From the NCBI GenBank assembly GCA_965223325.1, contig CBDCWI010000002.1, forward strand, positions 2,688,001 through 2,752,000: a DNA stretch of 64,000 nucleotides, written 5' to 3'. The stretch's first letter is position 1, and the number at the start of each line of letters is the position of its first letter. The position numbers and the translations under genes are program-made. Positions 18,209 through 34,564 of the stretch are shown here, in pieces. This stretch comes from Candidatus Multivoradales bacterium. GTDB taxonomy: Bacteria; Acidobacteriota; Thermoanaerobaculia; Multivoradales; Multivoraceae. The notes beneath the pieces were generated by a model. It made no database searches. It saw only the letters and a list, made by a program, of their open reading frames with translations, and had not been told where the DNA came from.

Positions 18209-19606
18209 ATGGCAGCTGATCGAGGAACGTTTGGAAAGCTGGGTTTCATCCTCGCTGCGGTCGGCTCGGCGATCGGCCTCGGGAACATCTGGAAGTTCCC
18301 CTACATCACCTATGCCAACGAGGGCGGTACCTTCGTGCTGGTCTACCTGGCGGCGATCGTCCTGATCGGCGGGCCCATCATGGTCGCCGAGATCGTCGTC
18401 GGTCGACGCACCCAGCTCAGTCCGATCGCGGCCTTTACGCGCCTTCGCGACGAGGAGGGAACGTCGGGCTTCTGGCGCGTGGCCGGCGCACTCGGCGTGG
18501 TCACCGCCTTCGTGCTGCTTTCGTACTACGCAATGATCGCCGGCTGGACCGTGTTCTATATCGGCAAGTGCCTGACCTGGTCGCTGAGCGGCTTCCCCAC
18601 CGACTCGACCGCCGTCGCCACCGAGTTCGGTGCCTTCCTCGGTGACGGCGGAATGCAACTGGTCTTCCAGGGCCTGTTCATGGTCATCACCACCCTGGTG
18701 GTCATTCTCGGCATCAAGGCGGGGATCGAACGCGTCACCCGCATCCTCATGCCCTGCCTCGGTGTGATGCTGGTGCTCCTGGCAGCCAACTCCTTCTTTC
18801 AACCTGGGTTCAGCGACGCGATCCGTTTTCTGTTCAGCGTCGGGCCAATCGACGCCGACGGCGTTCTCGAGGCCGTGGGTCACTCGTTCTTCACGCTGTC
18901 GCTCGGCATGGGCGCGATGATCACCTACGGCTCCTATATGGAACGCGGCGCGTCGATCCCCAGGTCAGCGATTGCAATCTGCATCCTCGACACCCTGGTT
19001 GCAATTCTCGCCTGCATCATCATGTTCTCGATCATCTTCTCGGTGCCTGCCGGCGAGCGTGACGCGACCTTCAGCCAGAGCGCAACGATCCTGTTCACGA
19101 CGTTGCCGCAGATGTTCTACGCCATGCCCTTCGGTAGGTTCCTGGCACCGTTCTTCTACACCCTGGTCGGCTTCGCGGCGTTGACATCAACGATCTCGCT
19201 ACTCGAGGTTGCCGTTTCCTACTTCATCGACTCGCGGGGCTGGGGGCGCAAGAAGGCCGCCCTCATTGTCGGCGCCAGCATCTTCGCTCTCGGTGTCCCA
19301 GCCGCGCTGTCGCTCGGCGCCTCTTCCTGGTTCTCGAACTTCGAGATTCCCGGAGTTCCCTCCGGCCCCGGATTCTTCAGCCTCTACGACTACACGGTCT
19401 CGAACTGGTTCCTGCCGGTGGGCGGGCTGTTGATCGCAATCTTCGTCGGTTGGATCTTGAGTTCGGGCGTCTCGCGCCGCGAGATCGACATCGGTCACGG
19501 CCGCTTCCGGCTCCATGCGGTATGGCTGTGGTTCCTGCGGGTCTTCGCCCCGGCGGCAATCATTTGGATCCTGATCGCCGTGATCAGTGGGCGCACCTTT
19601 AACTAG
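18209..19606 (+). CDS. Sodium-dependent transporter, neurotransmitter:sodium symporter (NSS/SNF) family
   Basis: 'GFILAAVGSAIGLGNIWKFPY', 'SFFTLSLGMGAM', 'AALTSTISLLE'; many TM helices; ends ...TFN-TAG. Confidence 0.95.
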   Translation: MAADRGTFGKLGFILAAVGSAIGLGNIWKFPYITYANEGGTFVLVYLAAIVLIGGPIMVAEIVVGRRTQLSPIAAFTRLRDEEGTSGFWRVAGALGVVTAFVLLSYYAMIAGWTVFYIGKCLTWSLSGFPTDSTAVATEFGAFLGDGGMQLVFQGLFMVITTLVVILGIKAGIERVTRILMPCLGVMLVLLAANSFFQPGFSDAIRFLFSVGPIDADGVLEAVGHSFFTLSLGMGAMITYGSYMERGASIPRSAIAICILDTLVAILACIIMFSIIFSVPAGERDATFSQSATILFTTLPQMFYAMPFGRFLAPFFYTLVGFAALTSTISLLEVAVSYFIDSRGWGRKKAALIVGASIFALGVPAALSLGASSWFSNFEIPGVPSGPGFFSLYDYTVSNWFLPVGGLLIAIFVGWILSSGVSRREIDIGHGRFRLHAVWLWFLRVFAPAAIIWILIAVISGRTFN

Positions 19607-20380
19607 CGCGACGCGTGGTTTACGGCCCTCGGTTGGTGAGCCGCGATTCGGCTCGCTGTGCTGGTGAGTGCCGGTTTCTCAGGGTCGTTGGGTCGTTACC
19701 ACGCGCCGCGCTAGCGTCACTCTCGCCGCGCAAGCGGTCCGTTGGGCGGGCCGGGTGCGCCAGCGCTCGCCCTGCACTTGCGGCTCAGCACTGCGATCAT
19801 CCCTCGCGCGCGGCGGATTCCTGCCTCCGATGAAACGAACGACTCCGGATCCAGGACTGCGGGTGAGCGGCGCGCGCCGCTCGAGCCTTGGCTGATGGAA
19901 CGAATTCTCAAACCTGATCACCCGCCTCCAGGTGCAGGCGTGGTTTACGGCCCTCGGTTGGTGAGCCGCGATTCGGCTCGCTGTGCTGGTGAGTGCCGGT
20001 TTCTCAGGGTCGTTGGGTCGTTACCACGCGCCGCGCTAGCGTCACTTTTGCCGCGCAAGCGGTCCGTTGGGCGGGCCGGGTGCGCCAGCGCTCGCCCTGC
20101 ACTTGCGGCTCAGCACTGCGATCATCCCTCGCGCGCGGCGGATTCCTGCCTCCGATGAAACGAACGACTCCGGATCCAGGACTGCGGGTGAGCGGCGCGC
20201 GCCGCTCGAGCCTTGGCTGATGGAACGAATTCTCAAACCCGATCACCCGCCTCCAGGTGCAGGCGTGGTTTACGGCCCTCGGTTGGTGAGCCGCGATTCG
20301 GCTCGCTGTGCTGGTGAGTGCCGGTTTCTCAGGGTCGTTGGGTCGTTACCACGCGCCGCGCTAGCGTCACTTTTGCCGCG

Positions 20381-22290
20381 ATCGCGGTAGGAGCGCCGGT
20401 TGCCCGGCGCCCCCCGCACAGATCCCAGCGTGCACTGCTAATGCACTGGGCTCCTGCCTCAGGTATTGACGACAAGTCGCTCATCAGGCCAGGGATGTTG
20501 GACTCGGGCTTTGGGTAGGTAGTGGGCCACCAGGGCCCACATCCGTTTCCAGGACGTGCGGTCTTTGTCACTGCGTCGGCGCAGAGCGCGCATCCAGTGC
20601 CGAATGACCTCCTGTCGAAAGGCGTTCAACGCCGCTGAGTTGCCGGGTACGCCGTAGTAGGCATTGAAGCCTCGCACCACGGATCCCAGCCAGAGACCTT
20701 GCTCTGGTAGCGGCGAGTGTCGGTGTCCCAGAAGGGCCGTACCGACAGCCTTCAGTGTCCTGCGGATTCGGTGGCGGCTCGTGATGCGCTTCAGCAAGAA
20801 CCTCCCTCGACTAGACTGCGCACAGCAGTGCGTAAAGCCTAGAAACTCGAAGGTCTCCGGCCGCCCGAGACCTCGCGCGCGTCGGTTGTAGGCCGCAAAG
20901 CGGCCAAACTCCAGCAGGCGCGTCTTCTCGGGTTGGATCTCCAACGAGAAGTCACGGAGTCGCAGGTTCAGTTCCTCGAGGAATCGTTCTGCCTCCTCCT
21001 GCCTCTCAAATCCAACGATGAAGTCATCCGCGTAGCGCACGAAGATCATGTCCCCAAGCGCGTTGCGTTTCCTCCACTGCTGGACCCAGAGATCGAGCAC
21101 GTAGTGCAGGTACACGTTCCCGAGGAGAGGCGAAATCGTCGCCCCCTGAGGAGTCCCCCGCGTGCTCGCGTGCCACTTACCGTCTTCCATCACTCCGGAC
21201 CTCAGCCATTTCTGGATGAGGCGAAGGATCCTACGGTCTCCGATACGGTGCTCGAGAAACTTCACCAGCCACTCGTGGTCCAGGGCATCGAAGAACCCAC
21301 GAATGTCTGCGTCGAGCACCCAGTTCACCTTCCGCTTTGTGATTCCAACGAATAGCGCATCCAAAGCATCGTGCTGGCTGCGGCCTCGCCTGAATCCGTA
21401 TGAGTACCCGAGAAAGTCTTCCTCGTAGATCGCATCCAACACCGAGACGACGGCGCGCTGAAGGATCTTGTCCTCCAACGTGGCGATGCCAAGCGGTCGG
21501 AACCGCCCATCCGATTTCTCGATGTAGACGCGACGAGTCGCACTCGCCCGGTAGCTCCCACGGTGGACACGAGAGTGCAGGTCCTCGAGATTGCTCAGCA
21601 AAGATTCTGCGTACTCGCTCCATGACACTCCGTCCACTCCTGCCGCTGCGTCTCGGTGCAACACGTCAAATGCGCTCCGGAGTCGCTCGACCGTGATGTG
21701 GTGAAGAAGCGCTGTGAACTTCACTTCCTTGCCCCTGCGGGCGGCTTCTCGTACACGGCCCAGCGCATTGCTCGCACTCTCCATCCGGCTCTGTGTCCGG
21801 GGTGCGTTTTGCTTGCCCGTGTTCCCCTTGGCCAGGCCCCTTCCCTCCACCGCCTCCGCCGCTGGTCTCCCACCGTTGTTCGACGACTTCGCAGGTACTA
21901 CGGGCCTGTCTGACTTCCGCCATCCGTGCGTCATCGGCTTACGGCCTCTAGCCTTCCCGATGCGGACCAGATACCCAACTGGCCAGATCGCGGATCTCCC
22001 GGTTCTCGCGCATGGAGATTCCACACATGCACAGGGTCTACGACCGCGGGGAGTCGCCGCAGAGCTCGCGATAGCGCGCTACGGAGTCTCGCCTTCCGCT
22101 TCGCTTGACAGCGTCGGCACTCCCAAATTCTTATTTCGCGGCTCAATACCCGGCCTGTGTGTGCCCCTGTCAACGCTTCACCGCACCCTCGCGGGAGCCG
22201 GCGCATGACTCGGGGACCCTCTGGGTCGCTACCCCTTCGAGGGTGGGACTCTCTCATTCCTTTCTCCATGCCGGTTTATCCCGGCGTATC
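20381..22290 (-). mobile_element. Group II intron (1910 bp), resembling bacterial class E, no endonuclease domain
   Basis: Removing 20381-22290 restores the repeat unit exactly (gccgcg|caagcggtcc). On the minus strand there is a DV-like hairpin 'GAGCCCAGTGC...GCACGCTGGGATC' and DVI ending 'CCTACCGCGAT'. Putative EBS1 CAAGCG (22102-22107) is complementary to the 5' exon end CGCTTG. Class assignment is inferred from the IEP termini. Confidence 0.93.
20459..21934 (-). CDS. ltrA: Group II intron reverse transcriptase/maturase
   Basis: RT motifs 'RPLGIATLEDKILQ', 'SYGFRRGRSQHDA', 'DADIRGFFD', 'GTPQGATISPLLGNVYLH', 'RYADD', 'FLGF'; ends 'HPWPDERLVVNT' with no HNH domain. Likely start MTHGWRKSD; the ORF is open to 22024. 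Confidence 0.95.
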   Translation of the reverse strand: MTHGWRKSDRPVVPAKSSNNGGRPAAEAVEGRGLAKGNTGKQNAPRTQSRMESASNALGRVREAARRGKEVKFTALLHHITVERLRSAFDVLHRDAAAGVDGVSWSEYAESLLSNLEDLHSRVHRGSYRASATRRVYIEKSDGRFRPLGIATLEDKILQRAVVSVLDAIYEEDFLGYSYGFRRGRSQHDALDALFVGITKRKVNWVLDADIRGFFDALDHEWLVKFLEHRIGDRRILRLIQKWLRSGVMEDGKWHASTRGTPQGATISPLLGNVYLHYVLDLWVQQWRKRNALGDMIFVRYADDFIVGFERQEEAERFLEELNLRLRDFSLEIQPEKTRLLEFGRFAAYNRRARGLGRPETFEFLGFTHCCAQSSRGRFLLKRITSRHRIRRTLKAVGTALLGHRHSPLPEQGLWLGSVVRGFNAYYGVPGNSAALNAFRQEVIRHWMRALRRRSDKDRTSWKRMWALVAHYLPKARVQHPWPDERLVVNT

Positions 22291-22494
22291 CAAGCGGTCC
22301 GTTGGGCGGGCCGGGTGCACCAGCGCTCGCCCTGCACTTGCGGCTCAGCACTGCGATCATCCCTCGCGCGCGGCGGATTCCTGCCTCCGATGAAACGAAC
22401 GACTCCGGATCCAGGACTGCGGGTGGGCGGCGCGCACCGCTCGAGCCTTGGCTTCGATAGAACGGTTCTACCCCCCTTTTCGGCAAGCCGGAGT

Positions 22495-23652
22495 TCAGAG
22501 TCCGGGTTGGGGCTCGTCGGTCTCTGTCTCGGTGGCCTCGCCTTCGGCGAGCCGGCCTAGAGTTGTGAGTTCGCCGGGGTTCTCGAGCCATAGGGCGGCG
22601 CGGAAACTGGCCCAGGCGAGGAGTGCACCGGCGTAGCCGTCGATGGCGTAGTGCCACCCGGTGGCGACTGAGCCAAAGAAGGTCAGGGCGACGCCTACGA
22701 CTGCGAGGGCCCAGAGGGGGCGCATGGTGCGACGGATCCAGAGCATCAGGAGGACGTGTGCTCCGACGTGCAGGCTTGGCATCGCAGCTACCCCGAGCAG
22801 GGGGTTGAACTGTCTGAGGTTGCCTTGGTCGCGACCGCGCACGATGCGCTGGTAGTTGCTCCACAACCCCTGCTGCATGTTGGTCGCCCTCGGTAGGTCT
22901 GCGCGAGAGGCCTCGACCGAGTCCGGATATGCGTAACAGGGGCCGACGGCTGGCAGCGCCATGTACATCCAGGCGCCCAACATCCAAAGCAGCGCGCAGG
23001 AAAGAATGAAGCTGCGTCGCAGACGCTCCCGCCGCGCACAGGTCAGGAAGGCGACTAGCCACACCACCGTGGTCAACCAGAGGCCGTACCAGCTATCGAG
23101 GAACCCGGCGAGACTCGTTCCGCCGAGGAGGTTGGCGAAGAACACGTTCGGCTGCACGCCGAGATGAAGGACTCGATCGATCGACCAGAAGCTGGCGTCG
23201 TAGAGATCGCTTCGCACCAGCGGCACCGACACCTTCACCCATGTGTAGGTGTAGAAGAGAAGCGCATAGCAAACGTAGAGCCTGAGCCAGGCGAGGTACC
23301 AACGCGGCGTTCGCAACACCTCCAGGTAACGTTCGACCGGTAACGGACTCCTCTGCCAGACCGACGCAGCGACCATCCAGGCGAAATGTGCGAGAACACC
23401 CAGCAAGATGAGACGCGGTGCCGCGTTCACGAACGGCCCGAGTGTGTAGCGGAAGGTGACCCAGTCGACGTTCAGCCCTTGACTGCGAAGGAACAGCACC
23501 GAACCCAGGAAGATGGTCCACACCACGATCTCGAGCGGCCACGGCCGCAGCCAGCGCCGAAGGCTCAGCGCCTCAGGATCCGTCGGCTCCGTCGAGTCAT
23601 GCGACGAGCGGACCCCTACGTCGGGTGCAGCACCGTTTTCGTCAGGCGTCAT
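22495..23652 (-). CDS. PAP2-superfamily membrane protein (AUR1/inositolphosphotransferase-like)
   Basis: 'PAVGP', 'AAMPSLHVG', 'GWHYAIDG' motifs, multiple TMs. Confidence 0.82.
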   Translation of the reverse strand: MTPDENGAAPDVGVRSSHDSTEPTDPEALSLRRWLRPWPLEIVVWTIFLGSVLFLRSQGLNVDWVTFRYTLGPFVNAAPRLILLGVLAHFAWMVAASVWQRSPLPVERYLEVLRTPRWYLAWLRLYVCYALLFYTYTWVKVSVPLVRSDLYDASFWSIDRVLHLGVQPNVFFANLLGGTSLAGFLDSWYGLWLTTVVWLVAFLTCARRERLRRSFILSCALLWMLGAWMYMALPAVGPCYAYPDSVEASRADLPRATNMQQGLWSNYQRIVRGRDQGNLRQFNPLLGVAAMPSLHVGAHVLLMLWIRRTMRPLWALAVVGVALTFFGSVATGWHYAIDGYAGALLAWASFRAALWLENPGELTTLGRLAEGEATETETDEPQPGL

Positions 23653-23802
23653 GGGTCGACTCAGAAGGAAGGGGGGAGAACGGAGGGGCGTACGGAGGGG
23701 AGCGCCGAACAGCGCCGGGCGAGTATGGCGCAAGGCGCGCGCGCACGTCGAGCGCATACGTTCCACAGTCGAGCCACCTGGCTGCCACAATCATCGCCCA
23801 CC

Positions 23803-25134
23803 ATGGCGAGCATGAGCACAAGACCGAAGTACTGCGCCGGGGCGCTCGTCGCCTGCCTTGCGGCTCTCGCGCTCCTCTCCTGCCGAGCTACCGAAGAAGC
23901 GACCGAGCGCTCGCTAGCGCGCGCCCCGGTCGCCGCGACCACACCCGCAGATCCTTCGACTTCTCATACGGGATTTCTCCATGGCCGCATCACCACCCGT
24001 GACGGCTCGTCCATCACCGGCCGCCTGCGCTGGGGCGGCGACGAGGAAGCCTTCTACGACAACTACTTCAACGGCTGGAAGGCCGAGAACCCTTGGGCGC
24101 ATTTCGTTCCGCCGGAACGACTCACCGAACGAACCGTCGTCGAGATCTTTGGCATTCAGGTCAGAGAGCGAGAACGCCCCCTGAAGCTCGAACGACCGTT
24201 CATGGTGCGCTTCGGCGACCTTTCTCACATTGAAGTCGAAGGCAACGACATTCGGGTGACCGCAAAGAACGGCACGACCTTCACTCTCGACCGCCTCAAT
24301 GCAGATGACATTGCAGACGGCGTACGCGTCTGGGACAGTGGGGGCCGCTCGACCGACCTCTCGGAACCTCAGATCCGCAGGGTCGAGATTCTGCCCGCCG
24401 TAACGACCGGTCCGGTGCCCACTCGCTTGCATGGCACGGTGGACACCAGCGAAGGCGACTTCACTGGCTTCATCCATTGGAACCGGAGAGCCTCCGTCGA
24501 CACAGACGAGCTCACCGGGCAAGGCGACGACGGCGATCTCACTCTTGCCTTCAAGGCCATCCGTTCGATCAGCCGCCTCTCCAGTGCCAGCGCGCGCGTG
24601 ACGCTACGTAACGGAAGCGAGGTCACACTTTCGGGTACCGAGGATGTTGGTCAGGGCAATCGCGGCATCGAAGTAGAAGATTCTCGCTTCGGCACCGTGC
24701 GGATCTCCTGGCAGGCCTTCTCTCGCCTCACCCTGAACGCCGCCGGCAGTGGACGCGCCTATGCCGATTTCCCGCCCGGCCAGGCACTCCAGGGCAACGT
24801 TGAGCTGGCTGACGGCGGTAGTCTGAGCGGGCGCCTGGTCTACGACCTTGATGAGAGCACGACCTTCGAGACTCTCGACGCGCCCTGGCGCGGCCTGCAC
24901 TTCAGCATTCCGTTCGGGTTGATCGCCACGATCACCCGCGATCCTGGGACCCCCGGGCACACCCGGATCAGCCTTCATGGCGGAGAAGAGCTTGAACTCG
25001 AAAACCACGGCGATCTTGCAGAAGACATCGCTGGGATCCTGGTCTTCACCACAGAAGACGCAGAGCCCGAGTACCTCGCCTGGAGCGACGTCACGAGAGT
25101 CGACTTCTCCTCGCCGGTTCAGGAAAACCGGTAG
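23803..25134 (+). CDS. Hypothetical lipoprotein with three internal repeats
   Basis: Lipobox-like 'ALLSC'; repeats 'HGRITTRDG..ITGRLRW', 'HGTVDTSEG.FTGFIHW', 'QGNVELADG..LSGRLVY'. Confidence 0.72.
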   Translation: MASMSTRPKYCAGALVACLAALALLSCRATEEATERSLARAPVAATTPADPSTSHTGFLHGRITTRDGSSITGRLRWGGDEEAFYDNYFNGWKAENPWAHFVPPERLTERTVVEIFGIQVRERERPLKLERPFMVRFGDLSHIEVEGNDIRVTAKNGTTFTLDRLNADDIADGVRVWDSGGRSTDLSEPQIRRVEILPAVTTGPVPTRLHGTVDTSEGDFTGFIHWNRRASVDTDELTGQGDDGDLTLAFKAIRSISRLSSASARVTLRNGSEVTLSGTEDVGQGNRGIEVEDSRFGTVRISWQAFSRLTLNAAGSGRAYADFPPGQALQGNVELADGGSLSGRLVYDLDESTTFETLDAPWRGLHFSIPFGLIATITRDPGTPGHTRISLHGGEELELENHGDLAEDIAGILVFTTEDAEPEYLAWSDVTRVDFSSPVQENR

Positions 25135-25183
25135 CCTCATCTCTGCCGAGAACTCCCCGCCCACAACCTCTGGGAGCAAGGCC

Positions 25184-25642
25184 ATGCGAACAACAAGCCT
25201 CCTGCTTGTCGCACTCCTCTCCTCGTCGGCCGTCGCCTGCTCAGACAACGCAACCAAACTGTCCTTTGCGATCGAACGTGCCGCTCAGGCTCACAGCGAC
25301 GGTGCGAACGACAACCAGCAGTCGATCGTCTACACACCGCGCAACGCTCCAAACGAACCGTACTTTCTGGTCTTCTTTCCAGATCGCGCCACTTCAGAGG
25401 TTCAACTGGAAGCTGCCGGACTGCCCCGCCCGCTGGTAGCGCGCATCTTCACTGAGATGGCCTACCTTCCCATCGGCCGATCACCCTTCCTGATCTTCGT
25501 GCGCGAAGGAGGGGACCTGTACTTCACGACCCATTGGACGCGGTTCGCTTCCGTCCCAGAGCCGCTGGTCGTCAACGCCAGCGGTCCGGTCGAGCTCACC
25601 ATCACGCACTCGGCCGATGGTGCCACCATCGGCTTGCCGTGA
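25184..25642 (+). CDS. Hypothetical lipoprotein
   Basis: 'MRTTSLLLVALLSSSAVAC' lipobox; GGAG RBS upstream. Confidence 0.65.
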   Translation: MRTTSLLLVALLSSSAVACSDNATKLSFAIERAAQAHSDGANDNQQSIVYTPRNAPNEPYFLVFFPDRATSEVQLEAAGLPRPLVARIFTEMAYLPIGRSPFLIFVREGGDLYFTTHWTRFASVPEPLVVNASGPVELTITHSADGATIGLP

Positions 25643-25819
25643 GCCGCTACCATCACCATCGACGATACCGGAGACCGGCTACGGGTCGCCTCCGAGCAGT
25701 GCAGGCGGAGGCATCGCGGCAGAGCTCGAGCCACTGCGCCTGGTGAACCTCCCTACCGAAGCTGGTTGACCGGAGGGCCTTGATCTCATGGCCGCGGCGT
25801 GGCCGGCGACGGAGACGAC

Positions 25820-26788
25820 ATGAAAGCAATCGAAATCGAAGCGGGCGAGCTCGTCTGGCGAAGTGTTGACCCGCCGGCAATGGACAACGGTGACGTCCGA
25901 ATTCGCGTCCATGCTACCGCCGTCAACCGTGCCGACCTTTCCCAACGCGCCGGTGCCTACCCTCCGCCACCTGGAGCCAGCCCGATTCTCGGCCTGGAGT
26001 GCGCCGGTGAGATCATCGAAGTAGGCGCCGAGGTTCAGGGTTGGAAGGTCGGGCAGACGTGTTGCGCGCTGCTCGCCGGTGGGGGCTACGCCGAAGAGGT
26101 CGTTGTACCAGCTGGACAGGTCCTCTCGATTCCCGCCGGCTCGAGCATGGAGGAAGCGGCGGCACTGCCGGAGGTCTTCTCCACCGCCTGGCTCAACCTC
26201 TACCGCGAAGCCGCCTTGCAACCCGGCGAGCGCGTAGTGCTCCATGCCGGCGCTAGCGGTGTCGGCACCGCGGCGCTACAACTCTGCCGCATGACCGGGA
26301 ACCCGACCTTCGTCACCGTCGGCTCAGAAGCCAAGATCGAGGCCTGCCGCAACTATGGTGCCGACGCCGGATGGAACCGCCACGAGGGCTCGTTCGCTGA
26401 AGCTGTCCGTGAGTGGAGCGGCGAAAAGGGGGTCGACGTCATTCTCGACCCGGTTGGCGCGGGCTACCTCGCCGACAACTTGCAGGTCCTCGGCAGCGAC
26501 GGGCGGCTGGTGGTCATCGGGCTCCTGGGAGGCACCAGCGCCGAGGTCAACCTCGGGCTGATGATGGTGAAGCGTGTACGGGTGATCGGATCGACCCTGC
26601 GCGCCCGTCCCGTTGCCGCCAAGGCTGCGATCATTCGCGACCTCCGAGAGCGCGTTTGGCCAGCGATCGAAGCCGGCGAGATCAAGCCGGTGATCGAAGA
26701 GGTGCTGCCGATCGTGGAGGCCAACCGCGCCCACGAGGTCATCGCCGGCAATCAGACGGTCGGCAAGGTCATTCTGAAAGTGACCTAG
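25820..26788 (+). CDS. NAD(P)H-quinone oxidoreductase, PIG3 family (MDR)
   Basis: 'AVNRADLSQRAGAYPPPPGASPILGLEC', 'HAGASGVG', 'GSTLRARP'. Confidence 0.93.
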   Translation: MKAIEIEAGELVWRSVDPPAMDNGDVRIRVHATAVNRADLSQRAGAYPPPPGASPILGLECAGEIIEVGAEVQGWKVGQTCCALLAGGGYAEEVVVPAGQVLSIPAGSSMEEAAALPEVFSTAWLNLYREAALQPGERVVLHAGASGVGTAALQLCRMTGNPTFVTVGSEAKIEACRNYGADAGWNRHEGSFAEAVREWSGEKGVDVILDPVGAGYLADNLQVLGSDGRLVVIGLLGGTSAEVNLGLMMVKRVRVIGSTLRARPVAAKAAIIRDLRERVWPAIEAGEIKPVIEEVLPIVEANRAHEVIAGNQTVGKVILKVT

Positions 26789-26882
26789 AGAGCCGCTGTG
26801 ATCAAAAAGTGAGATCCGCGTGACCGACGTGAGATCTGGCTACCGAAGACTGTTGACCCCGACCACCTCCCAAGGAGTCTTC

Positions 26883-27587
26883 ATGACCAAGCGCACCCCT
26901 TTCGTTCTCTTCACCCTGTTCCTTGGCCTGATGGCGATGATCGCTGCCCCGGCCACCGCCCAGGAAGATGCCACCACCAACCACCACTCCTGGAAGAAGG
27001 CCAAGTTCCGCGTCACGATCACCAACCTCACGCGCGCCCAGGTGTTCTCACCGCCGGTGGTCGTCTCCCATAACTCCTCCGTGGCGCTCTTCGCGGCAGG
27101 CGACGCAGCGTCCGATGCCCTGGTGGCCATGGCCGAAGACGGTCAAACCGCTCCGCTCGTAGCCCTCGCGGAAGGCACGGCCGGAGTCAGCGGTGTCGCA
27201 GCCGCCAGCGGTCCCGTCCTCCCCGGAGCCTCGCTGAGCGTCGAAGTCTCCGGCCGGGTGAACCACCGCATCACTGCAGTCGGCATGCTGGTGAACACCA
27301 ACGACACCTTCTTCGGTCTCAGCGGAGCGGCAGCCCCCTGGAGTCGCCGCGCCGCCTACCGCTACGACGTGCCGGCCTACGACGCTGGCAGCGAAGCCAA
27401 CAACGAAGAGTGCGGGTTCATCCCCGGCCCAGCGTGCGGTGGCGCCGGGGCCGGCGTGCGTGCGCCCGAGGGCGCAGAGGGCTACGTCTACATCTCGAAC
27501 GGCGTGCACGGCATTGCCGACCTCGATGAAGCCGCCTACGACTGGCGCAACCCGGTCGCCAGAATCGTCGTCGAGCGCATTCGCTAG
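26883..27587 (+). CDS. Secreted spondin_N-domain protein
   Basis: Signal peptide; 'VTITNLT...FSPP', 'MAEDG', 'MLVNTNDTF', 'YDAGSEANNE'. Confidence 0.85.
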   Translation: MTKRTPFVLFTLFLGLMAMIAAPATAQEDATTNHHSWKKAKFRVTITNLTRAQVFSPPVVVSHNSSVALFAAGDAASDALVAMAEDGQTAPLVALAEGTAGVSGVAAASGPVLPGASLSVEVSGRVNHRITAVGMLVNTNDTFFGLSGAAAPWSRRAAYRYDVPAYDAGSEANNEECGFIPGPACGGAGAGVRAPEGAEGYVYISNGVHGIADLDEAAYDWRNPVARIVVERIR

Positions 27588-27617
27588 ATCGACAGACACG
27601 AAGTCGTCGGCCCAGGA

Positions 27618-27657
27618 GCCCCGGTATCGCCCCGCCGATGCCGGGGCCTTTCCCTTT
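27618..27657 (+). terminator. Probable intrinsic terminator
   Basis: Stem gccccggtatcg / cgatgccggggc followed by ctttcccttt, 30 bp after the spondin gene. Confidence 0.6.
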
Positions 27658-27801
27658 CGAGTCATTCCACGTCTACGCTCGACGGCGTCGGGCTTTCGAA
27701 TCCGAAGCAACGCCCACAGGCGATCGGCACGGTCGACTACACTGCCCTTGATCGGCCCTTCCTGGGGTTTGGACAGAACGACAACGGAAGGCAGGAACGG
27801 C

Positions 27802-28491
27802 ATGACCCTTCGCACTGCAACAACCGGCAAAGGCCACTTCGCGGCCCTGGTCCTCCTGTTGATTCTCACTCCGGGAGTGGCAACGGCGACGGACGATGCG
27901 GTCGAGTTCGAGGGAGTCGATGGGTCTGTCTACCAGGGCACAGCGTGGAACGCGGGAGGCAGCGCGGGTTTCATTCTGCTGCCCCAGTGCGAACGCGACC
28001 GCTCGATGTTCGGTGACCTCGGTGAGCAAATCGCTGCGGCTGGGTTTCGTGTGCTCGCGGTCGACCTGCCGAACAACACCGAGAGTGACGATTCCAGGGC
28101 TCTCCTCGACCAGGCCGCTGAAGCCGCCTTCGCGCACCTCGGTCAGGCCACGGCTGTCCTCGGTGCCGGTTGCGGCGGCGGCGCTGCCGTTCGTCTCTCG
28201 AAGGCACACCCTGAGATCACCCACGTCGGCTTGCTTTCGGCCGGGCTGTCGGCGCACGAGGAGCGCGATGCCCTGCAGCTTTCGGGGCGCCAGCTCCTGC
28301 TGGTTGCCAGCAAGGGAGACGGCCCTGCAATCCGCCCCGCGGGAACTATCGCCTACCGAAAGGGCCGCCGCTCAGCCAAACTCAAAACCTACGACGGCGA
28401 CCTCCGCGGCGCCGCCCTGCTCGAGGAAGACCCGCAACTGATCGAATTCATTTCCCGATGGTTCGCGCCGGCACTCGAAGACACTCCCTGA
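27802..28491 (+). CDS. Secreted alpha/beta-hydrolase-fold protein, catalytic residues apparently degenerate
   Basis: 'AAAGFRVLAVDLP', elbow 'LGAGCGG', 'LLLVASKGD'. Confidence 0.65.
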   Translation: MTLRTATTGKGHFAALVLLLILTPGVATATDDAVEFEGVDGSVYQGTAWNAGGSAGFILLPQCERDRSMFGDLGEQIAAAGFRVLAVDLPNNTESDDSRALLDQAAEAAFAHLGQATAVLGAGCGGGAAVRLSKAHPEITHVGLLSAGLSAHEERDALQLSGRQLLLVASKGDGPAIRPAGTIAYRKGRRSAKLKTYDGDLRGAALLEEDPQLIEFISRWFAPALEDTP

Positions 28492-28513
28492 CCCGCTGCA
28501 GCGCTACCTTCCG

Positions 28514-29902
28514 CTAGTACCACTCGGGAGCTTCCAGAGCTTCGTCCGGGTCGCTTCTGGCAACGAGCATGGCTTCGAGATCGGCGTCGAGTTCGGCCGC
28601 CAGCGGCGCGGGAACAAGCCGCGGCGCTCTACGGGCGAGCAAGGTGCGAATGCGTTCGAACCATCCGGCTGGTCGGGGTTCGGCCGGGGGAAACTCGCGC
28701 GCCAGTTCAGAAGCGGCTTCTGGCGCGAAGTCGAGCCCGCCGAACGCAGCGAGACGGGCCAGGCACGCCTGCGGTTCTTGCTCGAGCTCCCGGCGGGTTA
28801 GAGGGAGAACCCCGCTTGCTACCCGGTCCAGGGTTCGGTCGGTCATGGCCTCGAGGAGCGCTCTCCAGGCGGCGGCCAGGCGCGCTTCTCCGTAGACCGG
28901 GTGCGCTACGAGATCGCGCGCTTCGGACAACGCTAGCGACTCATCTTCGAGACACGTCAGGCGAAACCTGTCGAACGCCTGTGACGGCTGGTCGAGGAAA
29001 ACGAGTACACGCTTCTCACTGTAGTCCTCGAGGGCAAGCTCGGGCGGGCTGGGATCGTGGAGGTGGAGATCCAACGAGCCCGCCGACCTAACGATCGCCG
29101 GCGCAGCCTCCGCCGACGTCGGCAAGGCATTGCGCTCGAGGCACGAGGCCAGAGCGTGCCCGCCGCAGCCCGGCTGCGAGAGCACGACGAGGTGGGCGCC
29201 CCGAAGGGCCGCTCGACGCTCGGCAGTGCGCGTCTTCAGGTCGTGCGGGCGCCAGCGATGATAGGGGTTGTCGCGCACATCTAGATCGATGCGCGAAGGT
29301 TCGATGCCATGCTTCCAGGCCACATAGTGAAAGCTCACCTGGTCGCGCGAGCTTCCGGCTTCGATCTCGCTCCACCATTCTTCCGAGAGGGCCACGACGG
29401 CTGGATCGTGGTGGCGTCTTAGAATCACCATGCAAGCTGGAATGGAGAGCCCGTCGGGATAGCCCGCTTCGCGATAGCGGCTGACCTGCGCTCGCAGAAT
29501 CTCTGGGTCGTCTTTCCCGAGGCGAGCGCACGCCTCGGCCTCCTGATAGATGCTGCCGCGCCTCTCGGGATGTTCGAACATCACCACCGACTGCCCGCTG
29601 AGCTGGCTGGCGGCAAAGGCACCGAGGTCACCGCGAAGCTCGAGGTTGCCGTCGACCCAGACACTCCAGTCGTAAGACGGCAGGAAACGATGCGGCAGGA
29701 TCTTGGGTGCCTTGGCGCGCCGGACCGGAACGCCGCCCGCCGCGGCGGCGGGCAGCAAGCGCACATCCCAACCCTCGATCTGTCGGTCGGGGTTGTCAGA
29801 GAAGCACACCAGGTCACAGCCGCTCTGTTGGGCACGCGGCGGGCGCAGGTCATCGCAGCTACCGGCAACGGCGGTGTAGATCACACCGCGCTCTTCGGTC
29901 AC
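28514..29902 (-). CDS. DUF616 (TOD1/MUCI70-like) glycosyltransferase domain fused to a degenerate sulfotransferase-like domain
   Basis: 'VIYTAVAG..DDL', 'KILPHRFLP.YD.SVWVDGN', 'HPERRGSIYQEA', 'SSRDQVSF'; C-terminal 'VLSQPGCGGHAL...ELEQEPQACLARLAAF'. Confidence 0.75.
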   Translation of the reverse strand: MTEERGVIYTAVAGSCDDLRPPRAQQSGCDLVCFSDNPDRQIEGWDVRLLPAAAAGGVPVRRAKAPKILPHRFLPSYDWSVWVDGNLELRGDLGAFAASQLSGQSVVMFEHPERRGSIYQEAEACARLGKDDPEILRAQVSRYREAGYPDGLSIPACMVILRRHHDPAVVALSEEWWSEIEAGSSRDQVSFHYVAWKHGIEPSRIDLDVRDNPYHRWRPHDLKTRTAERRAALRGAHLVVLSQPGCGGHALASCLERNALPTSAEAAPAIVRSAGSLDLHLHDPSPPELALEDYSEKRVLVFLDQPSQAFDRFRLTCLEDESLALSEARDLVAHPVYGEARLAAAWRALLEAMTDRTLDRVASGVLPLTRRELEQEPQACLARLAAFGGLDFAPEAASELAREFPPAEPRPAGWFERIRTLLARRAPRLVPAPLAAELDADLEAMLVARSDPDEALEAPEWY

Positions 29903-30741
29903 GGGATCTTCCGTGAGAGGTCATCGGCGAGCGCGGCGAGATTCCACTCGTAGCCCAGCCTCTCCGCCGCCGGCCTCACATTGACCTCGAACTCCCGCTG
30001 CTCGGTCGGCGACCAATCGAGAGTGGTCTGCGCAGGGTTTCTGCTGTTGGGCTTGGTAGCGATCAAGTCTTCCAGACCCGAGCGATCGTAGCTGGGGGTC
30101 ACTTCGAGCCACTCACAGAAGTCAGAGTAGGCAGCGAAATCGAACGTCTCGATGGGGATGACCCGCTTGTGAGACTCCGGAACACGCTCGAGCAGTGCCA
30201 GACAGTCGATATTGAGACGGTTCCAGAACCACGCCAACTGACCAGTTCGCGATTGCTCTTCCCAGTGCCGCCCCTCCTCGCCGCGCGGCACGATGCGACT
30301 GAAGCTGTGATGGTCCAGATGGAGCTCGGGCTGAAAGCCTGCCGCCAAACTCGGGTCGTCTCGCACCAGCGGAGCGCGGTACCAACCCTTGTCGAGATAC
30401 GAGATCACCACCCGATGCGGGGCACGGACAAGCAAGACCACGCGCGCCTCCAGCTCTTCCCAGAGACGATGCACCGCATAGGACAGGTAGGCGCTGGCCT
30501 CGAACGACACCGCTGCGCGATCGAGGTCGGCCTCGACGTCGCGGCGCTTCGTCGCCAGGAACCCGCGCTCGTCGACCGGCAGCCGGTTGAAGCGGCAGTA
30601 ACGATCGAAGGCATCGATCAGCGGGCGTCGCTCATGGCACGACTGAACGTTCGCGTGGCGCGACATCAGCTCGTGCATGAACTTGGTGCCGCAACGCCCG
30701 GTGCCAACGGCGAAGACGGCTTTTCCATTCAAGAGTTGCAT
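29899..30741 (-). CDS. Sulfotransferase-family (P-loop) protein
   Basis: 'VFAVGTGRCGTKF' (5'-PSB-like), 'VVLLVRAPHRVVISY' (3'-PB-like), C-terminal 'AERLGY'; stop overlaps the next start. Confidence 0.75.
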   Translation of the reverse strand: MQLLNGKAVFAVGTGRCGTKFMHELMSRHANVQSCHERRPLIDAFDRYCRFNRLPVDERGFLATKRRDVEADLDRAAVSFEASAYLSYAVHRLWEELEARVVLLVRAPHRVVISYLDKGWYRAPLVRDDPSLAAGFQPELHLDHHSFSRIVPRGEEGRHWEEQSRTGQLAWFWNRLNIDCLALLERVPESHKRVIPIETFDFAAYSDFCEWLEVTPSYDRSGLEDLIATKPNSRNPAQTTLDWSPTEQREFEVNVRPAAERLGYEWNLAALADDLSRKIP

Positions 30742-30807
30742 TGGGGTTCCGTTGGCGACGCCTCGATCTGATCGGAGAGGAAGGGCGCTTGGCAATAGAG
30801 TACCCCG

Positions 30808-31695
30808 ATGATCGAACCCCTGATCGCCGAACGAGCCGCCTCCCAGGTCACCGTGGTCGTGCGCACGGTAGGCGAGCGCACCGAGACTCTGTGTCTCGAG
30901 ATCCTCCACTCCCAGCTGCCGCTAGAGAACGTGATCGTCATTCGGCAACGCCCCTTCGCCAGAGCCCATCGAGATTCGGTGGAGGCTGCAATCGAGACCG
31001 GCCGGCCGTGGGCCATGGTCACAGACTCCGACAAGCTGGTGCGCCCCGGGGCAGTCCTGGAGATGCTCCGTCGTGCCCAGAAGGCGCCGCCCCAGACTTT
31101 CATGGTGCACACCTTGATGGTCGATAAGTTCTTCGGCGGCGAGCGCTACGTCGGGCCGAAGCTCTACCGCACCGAGCTTCTCGACGAGGCGCTCTCTTAC
31201 GTTCCGGAGTCTGCCAACGTGCACCGACCAGAGACCGAGATGAGCAAGGCGATGAGAAAGAAGGGCTACCCCTGGTATCTCACGCGCTACGTCTCCGGCG
31301 TCCACGACTTCGAGCAGGCCTACGGCGACATCCTTCGCAAGGGCTTCACCCATGGCAAGAAGAGTGCCCGCTGGGCACCCACCCTCGAGCCCTACTGGCA
31401 ACGCGCCGCGCGGTTCGATCCCGACTTCGCCGTTCTTCTGGAGGGAATCGCTCTGGCTGCCGACGACAGCCGCGAGCTTCAGCTGGACATCGAAGAGACC
31501 GCCGCCGAACGCCACGAGGTGTTCGAACGACTGCACCTCGAAGAGAAGCCACCCTTGACACCCGGCGACGGGGCGCTGCAGCTGGTTGAGAAACTGCTCG
31601 CTGAGCACGAGCCACCGCCCGAGTACCTGCCGGTCAAACGCGATCTCGACGCCTCGACCGTACAGGCCGCTTCGAATGTCATCGTCGAACACTGA
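30808..31695 (+). CDS. Glycosyltransferase family A (GT2-like) protein
   Basis: 'VTVVVRTVGERT', DxD-like 'TDSD', 'HDFEQAYGDI'. Confidence 0.65.
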   Translation: MIEPLIAERAASQVTVVVRTVGERTETLCLEILHSQLPLENVIVIRQRPFARAHRDSVEAAIETGRPWAMVTDSDKLVRPGAVLEMLRRAQKAPPQTFMVHTLMVDKFFGGERYVGPKLYRTELLDEALSYVPESANVHRPETEMSKAMRKKGYPWYLTRYVSGVHDFEQAYGDILRKGFTHGKKSARWAPTLEPYWQRAARFDPDFAVLLEGIALAADDSRELQLDIEETAAERHEVFERLHLEEKPPLTPGDGALQLVEKLLAEHEPPPEYLPVKRDLDASTVQAASNVIVEH

Positions 31696-31710
31696 AGCTC
31701 TGCGTCACCC

Positions 31711-32439
31711 ATGAGCGCTGGCGACTACTTCATCGACGTAGCGGGCTACCAGTGCAACCCGGAGACCAGCTTCGACTCAAGCGAGAGCCGTGAGTATTGG
31801 ACCGACGAGCGCATCGCGCAGTCACTCGAGTTCCAATACGACGTCTACGCTCTCGCCGCCCAGCTAGCAGCCGAGACCTCGGCAAGTCGTGTGCTCGATC
31901 TCGGCTGCGGAGCACCCGGCAAGCTGGGCCTCTTCTTCTCGCCCAACAGTCCCGAGGAGATCGCGCTGGTGGACCAACCGAACACCCGCGAACTAGCTGC
32001 GAGGATCCTGCCCGATGCGAGATTCATCGATGCCGACCTGAACCAAGAAGTCCCAGCGATCGACGGCCAGCGCTTCGATCTGGTGATCTGTGCGGACGTC
32101 ATCGAGCACCTGGGACGACCCGACGCCCTCCTCGCCTCGGTACGCAACAACCTGGCACCCGACGGCCTGGCCGTCATTTCGACGCCGAATCGAGACGTTC
32201 GCCGGGGGCCCGGCAATCTACGACCGAACAACCGTGCCCACGTCCGTGAGTGGAACATGGTGGAGTTCAGGAGGCTGCTCGAAAGCGCCGGCCTCGCCGT
32301 CCAGCGCCACGAAGCGACCCCGATCCGCCGCGTCTACGGCTGGCGCGACATCGCCCGTCGTCATCTCGGCCTCTTCAAGCGCCACCCGATGATCTCCGGC
32401 GGTCAGGTCGCCGTGTGCGTGCACCAGGCCCGCGGCTGA
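31711..32439 (+). CDS. Class I SAM-dependent methyltransferase
   Basis: 'VLDLGCG', 'FDLVICADVIEHL', 'ISTPNR', 'HVREW'. Confidence 0.9.
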   Translation: MSAGDYFIDVAGYQCNPETSFDSSESREYWTDERIAQSLEFQYDVYALAAQLAAETSASRVLDLGCGAPGKLGLFFSPNSPEEIALVDQPNTRELAARILPDARFIDADLNQEVPAIDGQRFDLVICADVIEHLGRPDALLASVRNNLAPDGLAVISTPNRDVRRGPGNLRPNNRAHVREWNMVEFRRLLESAGLAVQRHEATPIRRVYGWRDIARRHLGLFKRHPMISGGQVAVCVHQARG

Positions 32440-32440
32440 G

Positions 32441-34172
32441 ACACAACGGACCGCTTGCGCCGCAAATGTGATGACTAGTGATCCCCGTGGTAAACGACCC
32501 ACCGGCATCCCGACGCCATCACTCTGTACACACCCTACCTTTCGAGGCCCGCCTGTGGAGGGCGTTAACCACGGGCTGCGGCGCAAGGGAAAAGCCCGTT
32601 CGGGTCTGCTCTGCCTTCCCGGCGGCTCAGGCGGCCCAATCCCGATCGAAAAAAGTCGTTCCATCGAAGGCACGATCCGCGGCGCGCGACCGATCACCGC
32701 AGTCCACGATCACGACTGCAGGGCGAGCGCCTTCGAAGACGGCACACACGACGGACCGCTTGCGCCGCAAATGTGATGACTAGTGATCCCCGTGGTAAAC
32801 GACCCACCGGCATCGCGACGCCATCACTCTGTACACACCCTACCTTTCGAGGCCCGCCTGTGGAGGGCGTTAACCACGGGCTGCGGCGCAAGGGAAAAGC
32901 CCGTTCGGGTCTGCTCTGCCTTCCCGGCGGCTCAGGCGGCCCAATCCCGATCGAAAAAAGTCGTTCCATCGAAGGCACGATCCGCGGCGCGCGACCGATC
33001 ACCGCAGTCCACGATCACGACTGCAGGGCGAGCGCCTTCGACAACGGACCGCTTGCGCCGCAAATGTGATGACTAGGGATCCCCGTGGTAAACGACCCAC
33101 CGGCATCGCGACGCCATCACTCTGCACACACAACGGACACACCGCAAATGTGATGACTAGGGATCCCCGTGGTAAACGACCCACCGGCATCGCGACGCCA
33201 TCACTCTGTACACACCCTACCTTTCGAGGCCCGCCTGTGGAGGGCGTTAACCACGGGCTGCGGCGCAAGGGAAAAGCCCGTTCGGGTCTGCTCTGCCTTC
33301 CCGGCGGCTCAGGCGGCCCAATCCCGATCGAAAAAAGTCGTTCCATCGAAGGCACGATCCGCGGCGCGCGACCGATCACCGCAGTCCACGATCACGACTG
33401 CAGGGCGAGCGCCTTCGAAGACGGCACACACAACGGACCGCTTGCGCCGCAAATGTGATGACTAGGGATCCCCGTGGTAAACGACCCACCGGCATCCCGA
33501 CGCCATCACTCTGTACACACCCTACCTTTCGAGGCCCGCCTGTGGAGGGCGTTCACCACGGGCTGCGGCGCAAGGGAAAAGCCCGTTCGGGTCTGCTCTG
33601 CCTTCCCGGCGGCTCAGGCGGCGCAATCCCGATCGAAAAAAGTCGTTCCATCGAAGGCACGATCCGCGGCGCGCGACCGATCACCGCAGTCCACGATCAC
33701 GACTGCAGGGCGAGCGCCTTCGAAGACGGCACACACGACGGACCGCTTGCGCCGCAAGTGTGATGACTAGTGATCCCCGTGGTAAACGACCCACCGGCAT
33801 CGCGACGCCATCACTCTGTACACACCCTACCTTTCGAGGCCCGCCTGTGGAGGGCGTTAACCACGGGCTGCGGCGCAAGGGAAAAGCCCGTTCGGGTCTG
33901 CTCTGCCTTCCCGGCGGCTCAGGCGGCGCAATCCCGATCGAAAAAAGTCGTTCCATCGAAGGCACGATCCGCGGCGCGCGACCGATCACCGCAGTCCACG
34001 ATCACGACTGCAGGGCGAGCGCCTTCGAAGACGGCACACACAACGGACCGCTTGCGCCGCAAGTGTGATGACTAGTGATCCCCGTGGTAAACGACCCACC
34101 GGCATCGCGACGCCATCACTCTGTACACACCCTACCTTTCGAGGCCCGCCCGTGGAGGGCGTTAACCACGGG
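32441..34172 (+). repeat. Tandem array B: 305-bp units (five full-length or near-full, one ~87-bp truncated, one terminal 135-bp partial)
   Basis: Unit starts at 32441, 32746, ~33041, 33128, 33428, 33733 and 34038; near-identical, with only a few SNPs and small indels. Confidence 0.95.
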
Positions 34173-34177
34173 GATCA

Positions 34178-34564
34178 CTAGTTCGTGATGTCGGAGGTCA
34201 CGCTGCCACCGCGCGCCTTCATGTACACCTCGTACCACTTCTTCTGGGCATCGCTGCCGGCGTAGTCCTTGAGCGCCTGCTCACTGTCGAATTCCATGAC
34301 GAAGGCGGCGTCTTTGGTCTGCGACTTGATGCTGCGCAGCCACACTCGCGAAATGCCGTCGTACGACTCGGCCATGGTCTCAACGCCCTTGAGGGCGGCG
34401 GCGATGTCAGCCTCTGAAGCGTCAGGCGCCCAGTCGACAGTCACCACGTGGATGACGGAGGACGGCTTCTCGACACCTTCTCCACCAACGACGACACCGG
34501 CAGCGAAAATGGCGAGGGTTGCGATGCAAACGAAAACGGTCTTGGCGAGTTTCGACTGAACCAT
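34178..34564 (-). CDS. Dabb family (stress-responsive A/B barrel) secreted protein
   Basis: Signal peptide; 'SVIHVVTV.W', 'AFVMEFDSEQALKDYA'; ends ...DITN-TAG. Confidence 0.75.
   Translation of the reverse strand: MVQSKLAKTVFVCIATLAIFAAGVVVGGEGVEKPSSVIHVVTVDWAPDASEADIAAALKGVETMAESYDGISRVWLRSIKSQTKDAAFVMEFDSEQALKDYAGSDAQKKWYEVYMKARGGSVTSDITN

Follow-up and report, generated by a model that had tools for sequence, protein, structure and literature searches.

Tandem arrays of a TAG-tagged palindrome and a structured core at gene ends in a Candidatus Multivoradales genome

Two tandem arrays beginning on stop codons

The window analysed, a 64,000-nt stretch of the genome of a Candidatus Multivoradales bacterium (Acidobacteriota; GenBank assembly GCA_965223325.1, contig CBDCWI010000002.1, positions 2,688,001 to 2,752,000), carries two tandem repeat arrays, hereafter A and B, each of which starts on the TAG stop of a gene in the same orientation and opens with a hairpin enclosing this stop. 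The original prediction, which had noticed in each array an internal segment complementary to the array's own terminal flank, was correct in all the strings and coordinates given for the two arrays, including the ctgcggcg continuation and the 16/17 pairing with one wobble described below; it had overlooked the stop codons, the group II intron that interrupts array A, and the membership of both arrays in a family spread over the whole genome.

Array A follows a sodium:neurotransmitter symporter (NSS) gene (18173-19606, + strand; Pfam SNF, E 6.6e-43), whose TAG stop (19604-19606) lies inside the left arm of the gene-proximal hairpin (19603-19714, + strand), which is predicted to fold as one long stem. 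The left arm (19603-19619, ctagcgcgacgcgtggt) reads CTAG-CGCGACG-CGTGGT and the right arm (19698-19714, accacgcgccgcgctag) ACCACG-CGCCGCG-CTAG, with a branched loop of about 78 nt between them; the arms pair at 16 of 17 positions, the mismatch being A.C on the + strand, i.e. G.T on the - strand. In unit 1, the hairpin is followed by a box (CGTCAC) and a conserved core (19715-19844, + strand) with a covarying helix GCCGCGC...GCGCGGC. Tandem Repeats Finder (TRF) delimits the array at 19613-20380 (+ strand, period 325, 2.4 copies), corresponding to units 1 and 2 and the start of unit 3, which are 99-100% identical by BLAST. A group II intron of 1910 nt (20381-22290, - strand), antisense to the array, splits the core of unit 3; it has an RF02005 match of 180.6 bits at 22034-22252 and a reverse transcriptase (RT) open reading frame (ORF) at 20459-22024 (- strand; Pfam RVT_1, E 9e-39). 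The rest of unit 3 (22291-22464, + strand), where the core resumes at caagcggtcc, stops about 30 nt short of a convergent PAP2-family gene (22495-23790, - strand). A 633-nt contig from a public sequencing run covers 19010-19642 with no difference and therefore supports the gene/hairpin junction of array A; the copy numbers of both arrays are those of the assembly.

Array B (32440-34172, - strand; TRF period 305) consists of about 5.5 units, one of them with an internal deletion, and directly adjoins, on its distal side, the TGA stop (32437-32439) of a gene for a methyltransferase. Its gene-proximal hairpin (34071-34182, - strand) pairs 34165-34182 (accacggggatcactagt) with 34071-34088 (actagtgatccccgtggt) over 18 perfect base pairs, extended by an inverted-repeat search to arms of 26 nt (34071-34096 and 34157-34182) that are 92% complementary, and internal units run on into ctgcggcg. 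The gene upstream of the array encodes a Dabb-domain protein (34178-34564, - strand; Pfam Dabb), whose TAG stop (34178-34180) again lies within the hairpin.

A genome-wide family of 61 loci

The source assembly comprises 6.69 Mb (64% GC) in two contigs, C1 and C2, and the best homologs of the NSS gene belong to Acidobacteriota metagenome-assembled genomes labelled Thermoanaerobaculia or Ca. Multivorans (61% identity). A whole-genome search with the shared part of the repeats, a check suggested by the original prediction, was conducted with an iterated nhmmer profile and gave 186 core matches in 61 loci, all of one family; once the pieces split by introns had been joined, these made up 174 units, distributed among 42 multi-unit and 19 single-unit loci. 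Unit periods range from 128 to 325 nt, and units are 95-100% alike within an array, as compared with only about 50-78% between loci.

Nearly all loci open in the same way, with a stop codon, five to eight variable bases (mostly seven, hereafter N7), CGTGGT, a loop, ACCACG, the complementary N7' and CTA. The TAG is thus paired with the CTA of the opposite arm, the base preceding it is variable, and where the stop is TGA or TAA, the right arm has the matching TCA or TTA. The loop measures about 74-83 nt, except at three minimal loci, where it has 3-4 nt. At nearly all loci, the hairpin is followed on its 3' side by a (G/A)TCAC box and a core of about 145 nt. A perfect stem of 16-19 bp was found at the gene-proximal end of 39 of the 61 loci; of the 49 distinct hairpins, 36 pair over 17 bp without any mismatch, and mismatches total 15 in 833 pairs. 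In 34 of 48 hairpins, the TAG and CGTGGT are separated by a constant 7 nt. The inner CGTGGT/ACCACG is conserved, while the N7 part is represented by 33 distinct 12-mers with a weak consensus. The complementarity of the arms is far above chance, and the co-variation of segment and flank, as originally described for arrays A and B, holds at almost every locus as well as in two relatives, here called G001 and G010. As a whole, the family occupies a noticeable share of the intergenic DNA and rewrites the 3' ends of about 50 genes, whose stops lie inside stems of 17-18 bp.

As for the core, an alignment of 35 representative copies showed compensatory changes in one helix, columns 41/130 being GC in 24 copies and CG in 10, and columns 43/128 CG in 31, GC in three and UA in one; beyond this single long-range helix, the covariation scan was too noisy for use. 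No Rfam family other than the intron reached its gathering threshold over the whole window. At E values up to 10, array A had no match, and array B had only sub-threshold ones, which were set aside: radC RNA (RF01754; 13.9-16.3 bits, E 0.35-4.2, vs. a gathering threshold of 40), a mycobacterial small RNA and WT1-AS. Neither matching features nor Rfam matches were found for CRISPR, type III toxin-antitoxin arrays, self-cleaving ribozyme satellites or a mini group II intron, and a promoter and terminator scan gave no promoter-like and no terminator-like site inside the arrays.

The core was found only in this genome. A covariance model of it matched at E <= 0.001 in none of 60 relatives, under strict filters and with 49 candidates scored per genome, and a relaxed core search of five relatives gave E values of 0.09-0.7 only. 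A 17-mer pattern of the core has 58 matches in this genome vs. zero or one in each of 400 other genomes of the phylum, which is no different from the control. In metagenomes, a 17-mer gave at least 120 single matches; all 80 that became loci were tested with the covariance model and none was real, the best score being 22.7 bits vs. 132-155 bits for members of the family.

Two variants of the layout were also observed. Two hairpins, at C2:2426766 and C1:1559012, are reduced: one of them, CTAGTGAGG/CCTCACTAG, has neither CGTGGT nor a loop, and the other is a form with a 3-nt loop; both look like symmetric central deletions of the palindrome. A sub-family carries a C-rich insert (GTCTTCTCCCCCCTTGG...) between box and core, at C2:510634, 3795036, 3962379, 4065333, 4105379, 4113473 and 85297; in G001 (locus L305), a similar C-rich module (GGTATTTTCCCCCCCAGG...) lies 3' of hairpins.

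Upstream genes and their stop codons

All loci are co-oriented with their upstream gene, the stop codon of the long ORF falling at stem offset 0-4. Of the 55 upstream ORFs, a few of which are short and doubtful, 45 end in TAG, eight in TGA and two in TAA. TAG accounts for 39% of stops in the background of this genome (5034 ORF proxies), and the excess is highly significant (p = 1e-10). The last codon is also biased: 16 of the 55 ORFs end in Phe vs. 3.2% of the background (p = 9e-12) and three end in Trp vs. 1.4%. A terminal TTC followed by TAG gives TCTAG, which pairs with CTAGA. Concerning the functions encoded, at least eight of 20 upstream proteins tested belong to outer-membrane beta-barrel families (Omp85, Autotransporter (2), TonB_dep_Rec (3), OMP_b-brl_4 and DUF481).

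The gene ends at the arrays are native: the NSS ortholog in G001 ends at the same residue, also with TAG, the Dabb orthologs of five out of five relatives share the end ...TSDITN, and the Pfam matches of the upstream Omp85 and OMP_b-brl_4 proteins reach the end of their profiles. At three to five loci, the hairpin has its own TAG beside the true stop, e.g. TGATAG, TGAGTAG and TTCTAGGGGTCTAG. The orientation of the downstream genes (31 convergent, 30 co-directional) was set aside, since the ORF proxy is noisy.

Host flank or element

The original prediction regarded the outer part of the hairpin as unique flank of the host, matched by the element. On this question, the evidence from the relatives is decisive. 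They were searched with the pattern TAG-N5-8-CGTGGT-short loop-ACCACG, using the reversed pattern as a control, and minimal palindromes exceeded the control in G002 (40 vs. 10), G015 (36 vs. 1), G014 (16 vs. 5), G010 (15 vs. 3) and G001 (8 vs. 3), with no enrichment in the 26 genomes of another genus, g11. These palindromes carry related N7 types (CGGGKCC; CGAAGCC, GGAAGCC, AGAAGCC and CGAAACC), the N7 being conserved in G002 and limited to a few types in G015, and are often in tandem with spacings of 62-300 nt. In G010, which belongs to a different genus, the TAG of the Dabb ortholog is followed by the minimal palindrome TAG-ATACC-CGTGGT-GGTT-ACCACG-GGCAT-CTAG, at the same place as array B. 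In both G001 and G010, the first unit has the full hairpin on the gene stop, later units have the right arm alone, and a genus-specific module lies 3' of the hairpin.

Because the same TAG-tagged palindrome with related N7 forms families in other genera, the hairpin is largely derived from the element and not copied from the host, an outcome that the original prediction had itself named as contrary to a target-matched hairpin. The N7 segments point in the same direction. CGAGGGG recurs in four of the 33 distinct 12-mers, against an expectation of 0.06 identical pairs; of the 33, 23 have C at position 1 and 22 have G at position 2; and the composition departs from that of native post-TAG sequence in per-position tests (p = 1e-4 to 0.02). 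Since N7 thus recurs between loci and differs from what follows native TAG codons, most of the stem belongs to the element.

The host DNA in the stem is limited to the stop codon and the one to four coding bases before it, and these pair much more often than chance would give: pairing was seen in 34 of 35 loci for the base immediately before the stop and in 22 of 34 for the second base before it, 25% being expected. In G010, pairing reaches four coding bases (GAACTAG/CTAGTTC and GATTTGA/TCAAATC). About 5 nt of true host DNA, stop included, can therefore pair with the outermost part of the element's 3' arm. The proposal that the site is chosen by base-pairing is supported only in part, as far as these bases go, most of the supposed unique flank being no host flank at all. 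Such a short match would fit either a target choice like that of IS200/IS605, which would explain the excess of upstream ORFs ending in Phe, or an outward extension or homogenisation of the palindrome by template switching, and passages of PMC3820800, PMC8604942 and PMC7202029 document that template switching extends or homogenises the arms of inverted repeats. NSS synteny offers no clean empty site, because the gene downstream of NSS in G001 is not a PAP2 ortholog.

Unit junctions and mismatches

Every unit of an array carries the same right-arm segment, whereas the left arms of internal units have decayed or are missing. The original prediction also took the internal junction to be common to arrays A and B; across the family, the junctions of units differ from one array to another. 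The majority are situated 0-6 nt before CGTGGT and some lie in the loop; others are at the outer stem base, the internal units keeping a decaying left arm (e.g. C1:774475, C1:823244 and C2:3962379). Some arrays have units of 128-209 nt without a hairpin, and arrays often close distally with an extra loop and right arm. Such junctions are better accounted for by hairpin-stimulated tandem duplication and unequal exchange than by precise insertion of a defined element.

All ten transition-type mismatches of the outer stems are A.C on the gene-sense strand, hence G.T on the antisense strand, and there is no sense-strand G.T (p = 0.002); two further mismatches in G010 obey the same rule. This asymmetry hints that the antisense strand, which is the sense strand of the intron, may be the one that folds. 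The strand signal is nevertheless mixed, the conserved non-Watson-Crick pairs of the inner stem being G.T on the sense strand.

Interpretation of the arrays

Taken together, we tentatively read the arrays as local tandem amplifications of a non-autonomous composite repeat resembling repetitive extragenic palindromes (REPs), REP doublets forming hairpins (REPINs) and bacterial interspersed mosaic elements (BIMEs), and made of a TAG-tagged palindrome with a lineage-specific structured core; we would give this reading slightly less than an even chance. Down to N7, the two arms of the palindrome are parts of the element and evolve together, and the element's terminal TAG either is, or directly follows, the stop of the co-oriented gene. 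The element would land at NN-TAG sites by a short match of the outer end of its 3' arm (CTA-NN) to the flank, in a way akin to left-flank recognition by IS200/IS605 or to the GTAG-tagged REPs that supply TAG stops. After landing, intrastrand template switching, or selection acting on a hairpin of single-stranded DNA, might extend the outermost pairs or keep them free of mismatches, and unequal exchange or slippage at the hairpin could then multiply the unit. The latter process would also explain why the same right arm is present in every unit and the full left arm in the first alone.

Several observations weigh against this interpretation. The TAG is paired and the N7 unusually diverse, unlike classical GTAG REPs with their unpaired tag and conserved stem. 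The stop-codon enrichment, with its 45 TAG, eight TGA and two TAA and the mirrored stops, is stronger than a plain TAG target predicts and needs selection or a role at the RNA level. The stems are perfect though the loops and cores of different loci are only 50-78% identical, so that some active maintenance is required; this maintenance exists but is not automatic, a paralogous duplicate at C1:291484 having four uncorrected stem mismatches. Orientation relative to replication, with replichores inferred from GC skew, shows no lagging-strand bias (32 co-oriented vs. 29 anti-oriented among the 61 loci). The contigs of four public runs contained neither an empty site nor a relative, three of the runs giving only a few 151-nt pieces at 100% identity.

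Nor is any enzyme linked to the family. In line with the original remark that no cognate enzyme is visible, none was found: no array borders an IS110, HUH or RT gene of its own, and the RAYT-like genes examined (RAYT, REP-associated tyrosine transposase) carry a different REP. There are 28 Y1_Tnp (RAYT-like) matches in the genome, in ORFs of about 320 aa that form several groups (e.g. C1:205198, 970216, 1242634 and 1917362; C2:784807 and 1927922). Inverted copies of a separate REP, GTCGGGGGGACTTTCCC, flank the genes of the dispersed group 1, the one group examined, and no hairpin of the family flanks such a gene. Furthermore, the number of Y1 copies in five relatives does not rise and fall with the abundance of hairpins. 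IS110 (PF01548) has four matches in the genome, none at an array. Two dense Y1_Tnp clusters, at C1:2.126-2.144 Mb and C2:4.455-4.487 Mb, were observed at the ends of the two contigs.

The genome also encodes a full-length integron-type integrase (TIGR02249, 422.7 bits vs. a cut-off of 265; C2:3807261-3808190), whereas none of 14 control genomes passes this cut-off. It adjoins a tRNA-Sec gene (aragorn; C2:3806946-3807045, - strand), and the nearest array is about 11 kb away. Beside it, within C2:3806467-3808190, 3.3 tandem 134-nt units each repeat the 3' end of tRNA-Sec (selC), as if a tiny element had integrated several times.

Whatever the role of the short flank match, the family is a natural system in which to ask how REP-like palindromes choose gene ends, how they keep their arms complementary while diverging, and why they amplify in tandem. 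If the match is functional, guide-type target recognition would extend to small non-autonomous elements; if it is not, the family is still a well-documented BIME-like one in a poorly studied phylum.

Alternative explanations

Another possibility, which we consider rather doubtful, is that the element persists chiefly because it acts in cis at the ends of genes as a structured nucleic acid, either as a 3' untranslated region or antisense RNA module or as a single-stranded DNA hairpin. By enclosing the stop, it would affect termination, mRNA decay or convergent transcription, notably of genes for outer-membrane proteins, with the tandem copies acting as dosage; a mobile origin is compatible with this role. 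The compensatory GC/CG swaps of the core helix, the uniform co-orientation with the stop at stem offset 0-4, the persistence of perfect stems despite the old divergence between loci, and the A.C rule of the ten outer-stem mismatches and the two in G010 are all consistent with it, as are the intron, which is necessarily transcribed and lies antisense, and the upstream ORFs rich in terminal Phe/Trp, with at least eight beta-barrels among the 20 tested. The arrays are, however, devoid of promoter-like and terminator-like sites and match no Rfam family (best radC, 16 bits vs. a gathering threshold of 40), the core occurs in this genome alone among those searched, and the sense-strand G.T pairs of the inner stem make the strand signal mixed.

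It is unlikely, in our estimate, that the arrays arose by guide-directed homing, in which the 12-nt slot between ACCACG and the box would be a programmable guide. Under such a mechanism, an enzyme (HUH, IS110-like or other) would insert units beside the complementary flank, arrays would grow at their gene-proximal side, and new loci would be rare off-target hits anchored on TAG(CG). The right-arm slot indeed does not differ between the units of an array, in which internal left arms have decayed or are lacking, the pairing includes host coding bases, the same layout recurs in G001 and G010, conservation falls along the slot from TAG to CG and then to variable bases, and both Y1 and IS110 genes are present. 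The slot is also variable at only 3 of 168 sites vs. 412 of 3276 for loop and core, a crude count inflated by truncated units, with four of 18 arrays dropped as messy, and hence suggestive only. Yet there are at least 33 unrelated slots without intermediates, and the loci that share an N7 would need many identical 10-mers at gene ends. The junctions range from the outer stem base to the loop with no conserved 3' end, arrays with periods of 128-130 nt have no hairpin, and neither a replication-strand bias nor an adjoining enzyme gene was found. The stronger proposal, that the slot is a working rewritable guide complementary to the stop region of the host gene, native coding bases included, and that this pairing, read on one strand, directs repeated unit insertion and lets the structured units act on mRNA termination or decay, is improbable to the same degree. 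If it were true, outer-membrane beta-barrel protein genes would be the preferred hosts of an element with a rewritable guide, and a non-autonomous element would choose its target by base-pairing beyond the 4-5 nt of HUH transposons and would be conserved in several genera of one family of Acidobacteriota.

Fold-back (snap-back or quasi-palindrome) synthesis, by which the whole 12-nt host flank would be copied into the element at or after insertion, is still less probable. It would account for the complementarity extending into native coding bases and for the TGA and TAA stops being mirrored by TCA and TTA, and template-switch extension of inverted-repeat arms is, from the passages cited above, a known process. 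On the other hand, N7 is not a sample of native post-TAG sequence and recurs between loci, palindromes with related N7 form a family in other genera, the duplicate at C1:291484 retains its four mismatches, and imperfect internal hairpins stay uncorrected. Copying of the full 12 nt, as originally envisaged, is therefore not needed, although the outermost 1-4 bp could have been extended by template switching.

Finally, integron-like recombination, in which an integrase would use the hairpins as attC-like sites and insert ORF-less cassettes at secondary sites, is very improbable: in spite of the full-length TIGR02249 integrase that is absent at cut-off from the 14 control genomes, the hairpins with a variable terminal structure and an intron lying antisense, as IIC-attC introns do, there are no RYYYAAC/GTTRRRY boxes, conservation lies in the inner part and variability in the outer one, opposite to attC, internal units have no full hairpin, and no array lies beside the integrase, whose adjoining repeats are those of the selC 3' end.

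Comparison with known systems

REP/BIME-like palindromes are already known; the family described here is set apart by its TAG-paired form with a hypervariable stem coupled to a lineage-specific core. According to Di Nocera et al. (2013, PMC3733652), GTAG-tagged REPs often supply the TAG stop of flanking ORFs, and REP/BIME-like clusters recur in tandem along with flanking DNA that varies in length. The family resembles these REPs, REPINs and BIMEs (PMC3733652; Bertels & Rainey 2011, PMC3116915) in being made of extragenic palindromes with a (G/C)TAG end downstream of ORFs, present in many copies (61 loci and 174 units, with minimal forms of 35-40 nt as at C1:1559012 and in the relatives). The inverted halves form a larger hairpin and are reiterated in tandem with adjoining DNA, the TAG stop is supplied to the gene, families extend across related genera, and Y1 (RAYT-like) genes occur in the genome. 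It differs by its tag, a TAG that is fixed in 34 of 48 hairpins but paired instead of an unpaired terminal GTAG, by an outer-stem N7 that is hypervariable between loci, and by a hairpin always coupled to a structured core of 145 nt in units of 128-325 nt. A cognate RAYT flanked by the same REPs was not found either, the group 1 Y1 genes examined being flanked by a different one. Most deserving of experiments are the short end that matches the host, the stems that are perfect yet hypervariable, the mismatches with their strand asymmetry and the bias towards Phe-terminal and outer-membrane protein genes.

At the left end of IS200/IS605 elements, a guide pairs with the cleavage site at a subterminal hairpin. 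The family shares with them a subterminal hairpin and a short left-flank sequence complementary to an internal sequence at the hairpin foot, which may be the counterpart of their guide pairing (NN-TAG matched by CTA-NN, in 34 of 35 and 22 of 34 loci for the two bases), and re-insertion at a retained target could yield tandem copies. In contrast, the element has no transposase, the pairing is Watson-Crick within a long stem, and the flank match beyond TAG is only 1-4 nt; the replication orientation bias that characterises the non-autonomous palindrome-associated elements (PATEs) of this type was not observed either (32 vs. 29). Left-end recognition by IS200/IS605 is cited in a passage of PMC6006769.

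With the IS110/IS1111 bridge RNA, the likeness is one of idea, namely an element-borne segment complementary to the target. The DEDD transposase gene that stands beside the non-coding RNA end in those elements is absent from all arrays, the four PF01548 matches being elsewhere, there is no two-loop bridge architecture, and the complementary segment has, for the most part, an arm of the element itself as its pairing partner. As for integron attC sites and cassette arrays, both have a hairpin at the ORF end with the stop in or near it, a variable terminal loop and part of the outer stem coming from neighbouring DNA, and an integron-type integrase is present in the genome. However, no R''/R' core site consensus (RYYYAAC/GTTRRRY) was found, the outer ends being TAG/CTA and variable bases; the conserved part is inner, and the 61 loci are dispersed and not beside the integrase gene.

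A group II intron homing into the core

The insert of array A has the ribozyme domains (RF02005, 180.6 bits), the RT ORF (RVT_1) and the conserved boundaries of a group II intron. Fourteen full copies of 1910 nt, 99.95-100% identical and with identical ends, are present in the genome. Thirteen of them occupy the same core position, between ...CGGACCGCTTG and CGCCGC, always antisense to the array and a short fixed distance after a GC-rich stem-loop of the core. The core is thus the homing site of a very recently active retroelement, since 13 of 14 near-identical copies share this position; homing of the intron does not explain the arrays. The single ectopic copy (C2:2349730-2351639) shares only GCGCTTG/C with the normal target. 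The 5' end of the intron reads GATACG (GAUACG), as compared with the usual GUGYG of group II introns. Insertion at a fixed distance after a GC-rich stem-loop recalls the IIC introns that home behind stem-loops, as described in passages of PMC1702495, with the difference that the target here is a repeat family and not the terminators of unrelated genes.

Additional observations

In the tail of the array A unit (19845-19937), the 3' portion of the core is present once more, though incompletely (ggactgcg...gcgcgcgccgc...ggctgatggaacg), so that this unit is itself a product of nested duplication. Along the genome, the cumulative GC skew drops monotonically on C1 and turns at 0.35 and 3.5 Mb on C2, which fits one 6.69-Mb circular chromosome assembled in two contigs, with C1 inverted relative to C2. 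Elsewhere in the window, at 11793-11840, a short tandem repeat was observed with an 8-nt unit, GCCAGGAG, in 5.8 copies (or three copies of a 16-nt period).

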